From sequence record PZ379075.1: 64,000 bases of DNA. One strand, given 5' to 3'. Position numbers and translations under genes: made by a program. The stretch is from a phage. Of this stretch, positions 1 through 28,358 are shown in pieces. Each line of letters opens with the position of its first letter. Within the stretch, counting starts at the first letter, position 1. The notes under the pieces were generated by a model. The model had not been told where the DNA came from. It did no database searches and saw only the letters and a list, made by a program, of their open reading frames with translations.

Positions 1-425
1 TTGAAGAACTGAAAACCTACACTTGGTTGGCTTGGAGAGATAGCCGACGAGAGATGAATAAGTAATATCGTGAAGGATTCTTACGAGAGTCCTTTGAGAT
101 AGGACTTCAGATCTCCTATCAAACTAACATTCATGTAACTAGCCCATAAGGGCGTTACCCTTTAATAACCCAGCCCACTAAGGGGGCGGGAGTTTAGTGC
201 TGGATTAGCATAACGCTTATTCCTACAAAGGCAACCGATTGTTAGGTCTTACATGCAATATTAATTAATAGGATAAGGGAGGATTCGTCCCCTCCCCCTA
301 TTCATAAACTATTAGGAGAGTACATTAGCTGATTAGCTGTGGAAGGTAGGCCGATATCTACAGCGTGGCCCAGAGCTAGTGTACTCCCCAATAACTTTAG
401 GGTAAATGTGGAACAACCTTTTAAT

Positions 426-599: not shown

Positions 600-911
600 A
601 TGAAAGCACGAAGAACTATATGGACTCCGATGCAGATTGAAAATCTTCGGAGACTAATCAAAGAGTACTCGGTTCAAGAAGTTGCTCAGATTATGAATGT
701 AACGGAGAATGCAGTTAACGCAGCTTGTACTAAATTCGGAATATCAAGAGCTTCAATCCGAGTTAAATGGTCTGAAGAAGAAGACCAGTTCCTTATCCGT
801 AATGCTGGGTTCATGTCTATTCAGAGAATGGCTGACATGCTCGGTAGAAGTTATGCTGCTGTACAGAACAGAGCATGTATGCACCTTAACATTAGCCTCA
901 AACTTAAATAG
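600..911 (+). CDS. putative DNA-binding regulator with two helix-turn-helix-like repeats
   Basis: ORF with GGAGG Shine-Dalgarno 5-9 nt upstream; two similar segments (VQEVAQIMNVTENAVNAACTKFGI and SIQRMADMLGRSYAAVQNRAC) resemble HTH motifs. First gene of the + module. Confidence 0.45.
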   Translation: MKARRTIWTPMQIENLRRLIKEYSVQEVAQIMNVTENAVNAACTKFGISRASIRVKWSEEEDQFLIRNAGFMSIQRMADMLGRSYAAVQNRACMHLNISLKLK

Positions 912-919
912 GAATCAAT

Positions 920-1174
920 ATGAAAGTTAACGAATTGAACAAAACTATCAAGACTGTGAAACTCCACACTCTGAAGAAGGGCGATACCTTCCGGCTGGAA
1001 GAGAACGGTCCAATTCATATGGTCTGTACTGCGGCATCTACTAATTGGGTAGAAGTTGCACGAGATCGAGTCGTGTGTGTCAGACTGGAAGATGGACACT
1101 TAAGTGGCCCCGTTGAGGGCATCTCTGTTATTCCTGTTAAGGTTGAAGCTAACGTTATTAAGGATTCTAAATGA
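920..1174 (+). CDS. small hypothetical protein, paralog 1 of a 4-gene tandem array
   Basis: 84 aa; shares with the next three ORFs the pattern L..L..G..F ... RL.DG ... V.PV; start and stop codons overlap the neighbours. Confidence 0.6.
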   Translation: MKVNELNKTIKTVKLHTLKKGDTFRLEENGPIHMVCTAASTNWVEVARDRVVCVRLEDGHLSGPVEGISVIPVKVEANVIKDSK

Positions 1175-1422
1175 AGATTACCCACAAGAAAGAAGAAGTG
1201 ACCACGATTGATCTCAACTCCCTCCCCAGCGGAGCAGTGTTTAAATTCCCTGAGAGTGCTACTCTCTATGTTAAAGGGTCTGTGTCTGAAAGTCCTAATG
1301 TAACCGTTAACTCTGATCGAACAATTACTCTTCGTCTATCCGATGGTAACGTAACAGCACCTTCTATCTGGTGCCGAGTTGTTCCTGTATCAGCAGAACT
1401 TTTGGTGGATAATACGCAATGA
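1171..1422 (+). CDS. small hypothetical protein, paralog 2
   Basis: 83 aa; ATGA overlap with upstream gene; conserved RLSDG and VVPV motifs. Confidence 0.6.
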   Translation: MKITHKKEEVTTIDLNSLPSGAVFKFPESATLYVKGSVSESPNVTVNSDRTITLRLSDGNVTAPSIWCRVVPVSAELLVDNTQ

Positions 1423-1664
1423 AAATCATCCCAAAGAAAAAGGATAATACGGTACGATTGGAAACAATCATTCCCGGAAACCCTTTCGTGGTTCAGAACG
1501 GAAGTGCCTCTCCTCAGTATTACATGAGGGTTGAAAATGCTTCTGGTAACATCCGTATAGCCAGTGGTTGGGTTCCTGTGGTAAACCTTTCCACAGGTGT
1601 GTTATCTGTTAAAGGTCTTGATGATCAGGTAGAAATGATTCGTATGTCAGTGGTTCAGGAGTAG
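1419..1664 (+). CDS. small hypothetical protein, paralog 3
   Basis: 81 aa; same family pattern; overlapping start/stop. Confidence 0.6.
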   Translation: MKIIPKKKDNTVRLETIIPGNPFVVQNGSASPQYYMRVENASGNIRIASGWVPVVNLSTGVLSVKGLDDQVEMIRMSVVQE

Positions 1665-1669
1665 TGCAT

Positions 1670-1918
1670 ATGAGCATTATTAACATTAAAGTTAAAGACA
1701 AAGAGGAAAAAATCCTCCGCGTCAGAGATCTAAATATGTCAGATGTGTTCACTCTCCAAGAGTGCCAAAATCAAAAGGTTTATATGATGACAGCTAAAAG
1801 CAGGGGTTGTCAACCTGCTGGAGCTGTTAACCTAGGCACTGGAGAACTACGTGTCATCTCTGGTGATATGGTTGTTGGTGAGAAGTTTATTAAGGCTGAA
1901 ATCATCTTAACTTCGTAG
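1670..1918 (+). CDS. small hypothetical protein, paralog 4
   Basis: About 82 aa; I prefer the ATG at 1670 (AGGAG 8 nt upstream) over the GTG at 1664; more diverged copy of the same family. Confidence 0.5.
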   Translation: MSIINIKVKDKEEKILRVRDLNMSDVFTLQECQNQKVYMMTAKSRGCQPAGAVNLGTGELRVISGDMVVGEKFIKAEIILTS

Positions 1919-1927
1919 GGAAAACAA

Positions 1928-2044
1928 ATGAGACGTAAAGCATATTCTTATGACGATATGATTAACCAGAAAGGCTTCGGTCAACGACAGCCTGACGGTT
2001 CAATTATCTGGTTCGTAAACGGACAGAAAAAGGTAGCTAAATAA
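1928..2044 (+). CDS. possible small ORF (38 aa)
   Basis: ATG-initiated short ORF in an otherwise uncovered gap; weak RBS. Confidence 0.2.
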   Translation: MRRKAYSYDDMINQKGFGQRQPDGSIIWFVNGQKKVAK

Positions 2045-2150
2045 GCCCTCTTCTCTCCTCCTTTTAGTACTATGACGCCTCTCTGTGGGCGGCCCGATTT
2101 GCGTAGGGAATTCCCTCTACGCAGCCATAATTTTTTAAGGAATTTCCCCT

Positions 2151-2384
2151 ATGTCTAAAGTAAGCGCAATCGATGCAATCCGTCAACCGTTTCAGTTCCA
2201 ATCCAAATCAACCCAAACCTTCAGCGAACCTAAGCAAATTCGCTTGGGTGGTACAGAGAAGACTGTGTTTGATCTGGCTAAAAACAAGAGCGTTACCGTA
2301 GTTGATGGTGGCACTCTGGTTAACGTTTCTCATCGCATCCGCACTGGCAAAACTGCCAAAGATCGTGCTAAGAAAGGTGAGTGA
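2151..2384 (+). CDS. hypothetical protein
   Basis: 77-aa ORF with AAGGA upstream of ATG. Confidence 0.5.
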   Translation: MSKVSAIDAIRQPFQFQSKSTQTFSEPKQIRLGGTEKTVFDLAKNKSVTVVDGGTLVNVSHRIRTGKTAKDRAKKGE

Positions 2385-27942: not shown

Positions 27943-28358
27943 CTTATATCCTTTACTTTTTAGCTTTCTTAGGAATAATCTTTTTATCTATTATTCTTGA
28001 ATTTGGTTTAAGTAGGTTAGTTAATTATTTAGGTAATAAGTAATTAATATTCTTTTAAATAGAGAATCAAAGTCCCTAGGAGTCCCTACAACCTAAATCA
28101 AGGATTCCTTAATTCTCTATTTTTATCTCGCAGGTGGCTCCTGCCCTTCGGTACTTGCAAGGGATTCTGTGAATTGCCCAATATACAAGCCTGCAATAAC
28201 TTTATCAGCTATACAATATATACATTACTAGTGTGTTATATCTACTACCAAAGATACTTATATTATATAGTACTCTTATCGGTATAAGCGTAATGTATAC
28301 TATACATAACCGCTCAAAGAGAGCAACAATCTTTCAAATTAAATAAGGAAATTAAAAT
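27943..28358 (+). promoter_or_regulatory. AT-rich structured intergenic region (candidate promoter cluster or replication origin)
   Basis: About 415 bp without ORFs; 11-bp inverted repeat aaatagagaat (28057-28067) / attctctattt (28112-28122) flanking a tandem direct repeat agtccctagg/agtccctaca (28071-28090); further short hairpins; AT-rich TATAC-type repeats 28190-28320. Confidence 0.4.

Follow-up and report, generated by a model that had tools for sequence, protein, structure and literature searches.

The early genes of podophages of the phiEco32-like group form a right-end cluster opposite to the late genes, which is transcribed by the host sigma70 RNA polymerase (RNAP) (PMC8948821, PMC12276001; for the definition of the early cluster in this group see also PMC9965538). 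In phiEco32 and SU10, this cluster runs from about gene 128 and gene 125, respectively, down to about gene 69-80; the early genes of SU10 comprise coding sequences (CDS) 69-125, and early promoters are located upstream of CDS125 and between CDS120 and CDS121 (PMC4281155). Moreover, fast-evolving 'accessory regions' have been described in virulent phages, in a study that does not mention the phage groups examined here (bioRxiv 10.1101/2023.04.06.535777). Here we analyse an array of four consecutive small genes, termed paralogs A, B, C and D, within a stretch of phage DNA of 64,000 nucleotides (nt) from sequence record PZ379075.1, the whole of which is referred to as the window. The DNA is that of a virulent coliphage, and its closest matches are phiEco32-like podophages (Kuravirus, Gordonclarkvirinae). 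A placement among the N4-like phages was rejected, since the matches are to Kuravirus and the layout holds no giant virion RNA polymerase (vRNAP) gene.

In phiEco32, the corresponding slot holds phi32_98, 97, 96 and 95, flanked by the helix-turn-helix (HTH) gene phi32_99 and by phi32_94, a gene of 38 amino acids (aa). B, C and D are the orthologs of phi32_97 (90% aa identity), phi32_96 (97.5%) and phi32_95 (100%), respectively, whereas phiEco32 lacks an ortholog of A and has the divergent type phi32_98 in this slot. With the variable accessory regions of virulent phages, such as acr-aca loci, the array shares small genes without known homologs between conserved flanks, presence/absence and allele mosaicism among close relatives, the early class and an adjacent HTH gene, although the latter lies upstream of the array and not downstream as in acr-aca loci. 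Taken together, the array is of a familiar kind, namely variable early accessory genes of virulent phages, and what is new is the unification of several PHROG clusters, the predicted fold and the set of natural variants described below.

An initial annotation of this DNA had regarded the four genes as diverged tandem paralogs, and both pairwise and profile alignments bear this out. A and B are significantly similar by direct comparison (BLASTP E=6e-13, 28% identity across 76 residues), while C-D (E=0.006) and B-C (E=0.018) are marginal as pairs, so that C and D are linked to the others through profiles. Comparison of ortholog-built subfamily profiles by hhalign gave 6e-11 for A-B, 1e-4 for A-C, 2e-4 for B-C and 2e-3 to 9e-3 for the D profile against the other three subfamilies. 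In addition, PHROG cross-matches tie all four together: the best cluster is phrog_7832 for B (E=3.3e-28), phrog_7431 for C (E=2e-31, with a cross-match to phrog_8365) and phrog_12612 for D (E=5e-42, with weak cross-matches to 7431, 6570 and 8365). Leave-one-subfamily-out hidden Markov models (HMMs), which were built solely from distant members without a BLASTP match (E<1) to the omitted subfamily, recovered A at E=1.4e-6, B at 2.4e-9, C at 5e-11 and D at 1.3e-9, each above 1000 shuffles (24.4 bits for D as opposed to a shuffle maximum of 11.8 bits). A broad family HMM scores all four proteins at 62-89 bits and matches no further open reading frame (ORF) in the window, which holds exactly four copies.

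The copies are mutually about 25-28% identical, D being the most divergent, with a loop shortened by 8 residues. Since no DNA-level repeat among the copies was found, the duplications are old, and orthologs of the copies already exist in EP335, a phage of another genus. On the strength of these alignments, A-D are best described as old, strongly diverged tandem paralogs of one family, and the earlier wording 'tandemly amplified', which implies a recent event, is not tenable. Of the motifs originally proposed as a shared scaffold (L..L..G..F, RL.DG and V.PV), exact versions occur in A and B only, while C and D carry relaxed forms, namely L..I..G..F and V..L..S..F, NL.TG and a single conserved V.

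The family extends far beyond the array. A family profile of 38 sequences, used in an exhaustive HMMER search, retrieved 231 representatives at E≤1e-3, a lower bound that counts clusters at 50% identity. Nearly all of them are stand-alone proteins of 70-90 aa that are matched end to end, and two are natural two-domain fusions (P0136, 156 aa; P0153, 154 aa). The conserved pattern of the family is MKI...L..L..G..F...YM...VNL..G...V.PV. The family covers PHROG clusters 7832, 7431, 12612, 8365, 6570 and also 9955, which are all listed as 'unknown function', and includes N4 gp21 (E=1e-17) and PaP3 ORF65 (E=1e-12) as single-copy members by sequence HMM. The same two proteins, N4 gp21 and PaP3 ORF.65, are among many uncharacterised phage proteins of 70-90 aa that were retrieved by Foldseek from the predicted viral structures of BFVD, with matches in phages of Escherichia, Pseudomonas, Klebsiella, Erwinia, Serratia, Dickeya, Proteus and Vibrio. 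The PHROG clusters that contain N4 gp21, PaP3 ORF.65 and phiEco32 gp95-98/gp104 are direct homologs of the array proteins, with the same stand-alone architecture and the same core motif; N4 and PaP3 carry one copy each, whereas the Kuravirus group has dispersed copies in addition to the one to five that share a slot. Unrelated metagenomic phage contigs possess arrays of their own, with three adjacent copies in one contig (L013) and six within 2.2 kb in another (L016), so tandem arrays recur independently. The metagenomic members are surrounded by long series of small genes that lack Pfam matches, as is typical of phage early or accessory regions. In a further contig (L018 5222-6692), genes for an HTH_3 protein and a PemK-family toxin occur in the same small-gene run as a family member, which is only a loose link to toxin-antitoxin biology.

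No match to Pfam was obtained for A-D at E≤1, nor for 137 family members at E≤0.01, and the array family has no significant match to NCBIfam, the defence-side models of PADLOC or PDB sequences. The earlier statement that the proteins belong to no known family thus holds for these collections, while it overlooks the existing PHROG clusters and the homologs in N4 and PaP3. Less sensitive searches contributed little: tblastn with a consensus-like member returned five records, being too insensitive for this family, and a further protein search indexed by sequence words returned few distant members. Likewise, clustering of the copies across phages by percent identity saturated at 25-40%, at which in-situ expansion and ancient paralogy are not separable. 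So far, the family is seen solely in phage genomes and phage-like metagenomic contigs. Literature searches on gp95-98, N4 gp21 and Kuravirus anti-defence or accessory regions returned nothing relevant. For annotation, at least five PHROG clusters of 'hypothetical protein' can now be treated as one family with a predicted fold, to which N4 gp21, PaP3 ORF65 and phiEco32 gp95-98/gp104 can be assigned.

The structure prediction suggested in the initial annotation gave a confident result for A: the AlphaFold2 model, computed from the family alignment, is an all-beta, SH3-like barrel with a predicted local distance difference test (pLDDT) score of 87 and a predicted template modelling (pTM) score of 0.75. 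The model of D, computed from its own shallow alignment of 12 sequences, is likewise all-beta with strands at homologous positions, yet is untrustworthy at pLDDT 45. Given the model of A and the sequence profiles that connect C and D to it, the best explanation is that each paralog would be a single-domain all-beta protein of about 9 kDa with an SH3-like barrel. In a set of 137 diverse members, conservation is seen at M1-K2-I3, L15, L18, G21, F24, Y/H33-M34, V54-x-L56-x-x-G59, V70 and P72-V73 (numbering of A). These are hydrophobic core and turn positions only, and the conserved residues therefore appear to build the scaffold. On the contrary, the loop that joins strand 3 to strand 4 (about residues 36-52) is hypervariable in both sequence and length, and residues 60-69 are hypervariable in sequence. 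The family is mildly acidic (median isoelectric point (pI) 5.8, net charge -1), a property more in keeping with the binding of proteins than with that of nucleic acids in general.

All four ORFs, which lie consecutively on the plus strand as initially annotated (Table 1), are real protein-coding genes. A Shine-Dalgarno-like sequence precedes each of them, and all four are annotated as genes in the closest relatives, which are 99%-identical phages; in Bas90, the counterparts Bas90_0094-0091 (99.4% DNA identity) are annotated as hypothetical proteins. In comparison with orthologs in seven other phages, the ratio of nonsynonymous to synonymous substitution rates (dN/dS) amounts to 0.03-0.38 per paralog (0.06-0.38 for the B orthologs), indicating purifying selection and, together with the Shine-Dalgarno sequences, arguing against a non-coding region. 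The corresponding ratio pN/pS is 0.13 at scaffold columns conserved in the family versus 0.47 at the remaining columns. The GC content of the array is unremarkable. Of the overlaps claimed between consecutive ORFs, those of A/B and B/C exist as ATGA start/stop overlaps, whereas C and D overlap, by 1 nt, only if D starts at the alternative GTG 1664, yielding 84 aa. The ATG at 1670, with a GGAG 8 nt upstream, is the start annotated in Bas90. A-D are probably co-transcribed, with A/B and B/C probably being translationally coupled.

Table 1. Positions of the array genes and adjacent features in the window (aa, amino acids; pI, isoelectric point)
Feature	Position	Strand	Description
HTH gene, phi32_99 homolog	600-911	+	103 aa, two helix-turn-helix motifs; not a family member
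Paralog A	920-1174	+	84 aa, pI 8.7
Paralog B	1171-1422	+	83 aa, pI 5.7
Paralog C	1419-1664	+	81 aa, pI 9.2
Paralog D	1670-1918	+	82 aa from ATG 1670, pI 8.7
38-aa gene, phi32_94 homolog	1928-2044	+	phrog_14557 E=1.7e-30; not a family member
Terminator-like 10-bp hairpin with T-rich tail	2099-2124	+	by consensus scan only
77-aa gene, phi32_93 homolog	2151-2384		phrog_6662

The orthology to phi32_95-98 and the conserved synteny assign A-D, as far as gene comparison can tell, to the early, sigma70-dependent gene class of phiEco32, in agreement with the earlier view that they are early genes of a virulent phage. Their supposed location at the start of the early module, in contrast, arises only from the position at which the window starts: the array corresponds to SU10 CDS96-98 and phiEco32 genes 95-98 and thus occupies a mid-cluster position, and in Bas90 it is directly preceded by no fewer than nine further genes and a tRNA. 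A scan of the region for the sigma70 consensus yielded no more sites than shuffled sequences did, and the phiEco32 gp36-type promoter motif TAATGTATA was not found near the array.

The comparison of copy numbers in related phages reveals one to five copies in the slot. The arrangement A-B-C-D is shared by the window, Bas90, IMEP8 and Paul, while phiEco32 carries E-B-C-D, in which E is a fifth divergent type (phi32_98), and EP335 carries E-A-B-C-D plus one copy further downstream. Reduced sets are found in SU10 (A-C-D), LAMP (C-D) and Bas92 (C only), and the Suseptimavirus phages EK010 and Bas87 hold two divergent copies in the slot and one downstream. C is the sole paralog present in all nine Kuravirus/Nieuwekanaalvirus genomes compared (the window and eight loci), whereas a C-type copy is absent from both Suseptimavirus loci. 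Outside the window, about 1 kb upstream of the array, a dispersed family member of 73 aa is encoded by the homologs Bas90_0098 (L001 1020-1241) and phi32_104 (L002 1059-1280); counting this copy with the four of the array, the phage carries at least five family members.

Allelic relationships differ from gene to gene. D of the window is 100% identical to D of phiEco32 versus 54% to that of IMEP8, C is 97.5% identical to C of IMEP8 versus 68% to that of SU10, and B is 90% identical to B of phiEco32 versus 65% to that of IMEP8. The flanking gp93 homolog is 99-100% identical across the Kuravirus genomes compared and 91% identical in EP335. The array thus varies far more among related phages than its flanking genes do, which agrees with the fast divergence noted originally. 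This pattern indicates that the alleles are mosaic and that individual genes recombine independently; individual copies appear dispensable, and the repertoire is reshuffled among close relatives. The BASEL phages Bas89-Bas92 and other Kuraviruses, which carry differing copies and alleles in near-identical surroundings, constitute a natural experiment, in which comparisons of host range and defence sensitivity are directly interpretable because the surroundings are nearly the same.

With respect to function, for which host takeover or anti-defence had been suggested from the outset, we infer that A-D are binding modules of the early phase, dispensable to the phage, which serve host takeover or counter-defence, a reading that in our estimation stands about evenly balanced. 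Each paralog would be a small binding module that is made in the first minutes of infection and docks by its variable surface onto a different host protein. The bound target, which could be a housekeeping factor or else a defence or toxin component, would be blocked or redirected. The genes would constitute dispensable accessory functions, with a repertoire reshuffled by gene loss and recombination; such an accessory role fits the dispensability and the allele mosaicism. Should the paralogs act in this way, a compact and recognisable scaffold, with hundreds of clusters in many groups of virulent phages, would be added to the phage proteins of counter-defence and host takeover. A wider proposal is that the family is a general diversifiable binder scaffold of virulent phages, an SH3-like barrel with a hypervariable loop, whose recombining repertoires of 1-6 genes would allow each copy to neutralise a different host immunity or toxin protein. 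The family would then form a new and widespread class of anti-defence proteins in Kuravirus, N4-like, PaP3-like, T4-like and jumbo phages. We consider this extension improbable, and a variant of it, in which the barrel acts on the ribosome as a mimic of domain I of EF-P/eIF5A or of ribosomal protein L2, less likely still.

Several points weigh against the role in host takeover or counter-defence. A confident fold is available for A, while C and D are taken as structurally equivalent on the basis of sequence profiles, and early expression is deduced from phiEco32 by orthology. The distant members were retrieved by a profile containing A-D, a partly circular procedure that the leave-one-out models reduce and do not abolish, even though full-length HMM matches of the same size leave common ancestry of A-D as the only reasonable reading. 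Positive selection is a hallmark of an arms race, and all dN/dS values, pairwise as well as partitioned, are below 1, so that positive selection is not demonstrated. Furthermore, the literature searched describes no activity or partner for any family member, and no link of the array family to anti-defence proteins was found in it.

The predicted fold itself offers a different interpretation, since the barrel appears to belong to the 'translation protein SH3-like' type, which is known from the C-domain of ribosomal L2, domain I of EF-P/eIF5A and KOW domains, and the hypervariable loop would be placed where EF-P/eIF5A carries its modified-lysine loop. Accordingly built RNA- or ribosome-directed proteins could bias translation or RNA stability early in infection. 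However, the likeness does not extend to sequence: Pfam KOW, EFP_N and Ribosomal_L2_C gave no match at E≤1, the profile matches to PDB were not significant (L2, E=1.3; aIF5A, E=0.71), and when the family profile was aligned to E. coli EF-P by hhalign, the probability was 0.3%. Moreover, unlike the translation barrels, the array-family proteins stand alone, are mostly acidic and carry no conserved basic loop; the median pI lies on the acidic side, and the conserved residues, being confined to core and turns, include no basic or aromatic surface residues. An RNA- or ribosome-directed function is therefore unlikely. At the level of the fold only, the family also resembles SH3/Tudor-like binding modules, such as the VapX antitoxin, FeoA, the C-terminal domain of DtxR and PWWP/Tudor domains, as well as the C-terminal domain of UvrD/PcrA and the RNAP-interacting domain of CarD. 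In contrast to VapXD, where the antitoxin has an adjacent toxin gene, no VapD-like toxin gene adjoins the array.

A similarly low probability is assigned to the possibility that the four proteins are subunits of one hetero-oligomer or a single tandem-domain unit. The ATGA overlaps, which suggest translational coupling and equal stoichiometry, the natural fusions P0136 and P0153 and the recurrence of arrays in unrelated phages would all suit such an assembly, but related phages carry subsets of one to five copies and N4 and PaP3 a single copy, which renders an obligate four-part complex unlikely, and the alleles of single genes recombine independently. Early location, dispensability and variable copy number and alleles would equally be expected if the binders took part in inter-phage competition or superinfection exclusion and acted on proteins of rival phages or of mobile elements. 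Exclusion proteins are in many cases membrane proteins, whereas inspection of the A-D sequences, without a formal prediction, revealed no obvious signal peptide or membrane segment, and we regard this role as very improbable. Finally, the marginal pairwise similarity of C and D and the poor model of D might be taken to mean that the ORFs are chance ORFs or decaying pseudogenes of similar composition. This reading is effectively refuted by dN/dS values far below 1 in the plus-strand frames, HMM matches far above shuffles, intact orthologs across genera, hundreds of stand-alone homologs of the same length and the confident model of A.

Upstream of the array, the HTH gene matches phrog_323, 'transcriptional regulator, D5-like' (E=2.6e-28), and Pfam Sigma70_r4_2 (E=3e-7). 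It is annotated in Bas90, syntenic in all Kuravirus loci examined and part of the same tightly packed co-directional block. The regulator is 93-99% identical in most Kuraviruses versus 64% identical to phi32_99 (L002 2321-2644), and the DNA match to phiEco32 begins only at about window position 768; owing to this late start, a recombination breakpoint may lie inside or beside the HTH gene. An extra phiEco32 gene, phi32_100, is absent from the window. Downstream, the phi32_94 homolog closes the slot in every related phage and shows 100% aa identity to phiEco32, IMEP8 and SU10, and the hairpin that follows it may form the 3' boundary of a block HTH-A-B-C-D-gp94. The phi32_93 homolog has the same protein sequence (100% aa identity) in phiEco32, IMEP8, Paul and SU10 even though synonymous divergence (dS) amounts to 0.17-0.35, and hence is under very strong purifying selection, in sharp contrast to the adjoining array.

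Further upstream, the HTH gene is preceded by a non-coding stretch of about 270 nt (66-335, plus strand). Some 77 Kuravirus records share this stretch at 95-100% identity, even though the proteins encoded nearby diverge by 30-50%. A Salmonella phage (Grimontviridae) has it at 89% identity, and parts of it (60-190 nt, 68-82% identity) occur in the unrelated N4-like Gamaleyavirus phages Bas96, ECBP1, KKP 3715, SP5M, pSb-1 and UE-M6. Its predicted RNA fold has a z-score of -2.76, and in an alignment of seven sequences 7 of the 42 predicted pairs are kept via two-sided changes, for instance GGGAGG/CCTCCC to GGCGG/CCGCC. An Rfam search of the stretch gave no match. It may represent a structured RNA or a regulatory element that is exchanged between phage families. 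Immediately upstream of the ribosome-binding site of the HTH gene, at about 390-575, the window carries an insertion of about 180 nt relative to Bas90 and phiEco32, which includes a tRNA-like T-arm GGTTCGAATCC (about 545-565) and which 13 phage records, two of them of Klebsiella phages, contain without annotation. A tRNA at this position was rejected: ARAGORN reported none in the window, Rfam gave nothing at E≤1, and the fold is no better than that of shuffled sequences.

Far from the array, at 28210-28309, four copies of the gp36 motif TAATGTATA, two exact and two with one mismatch, lie on both strands within 100 nt, and this cluster is probably a divergent middle/late promoter region.

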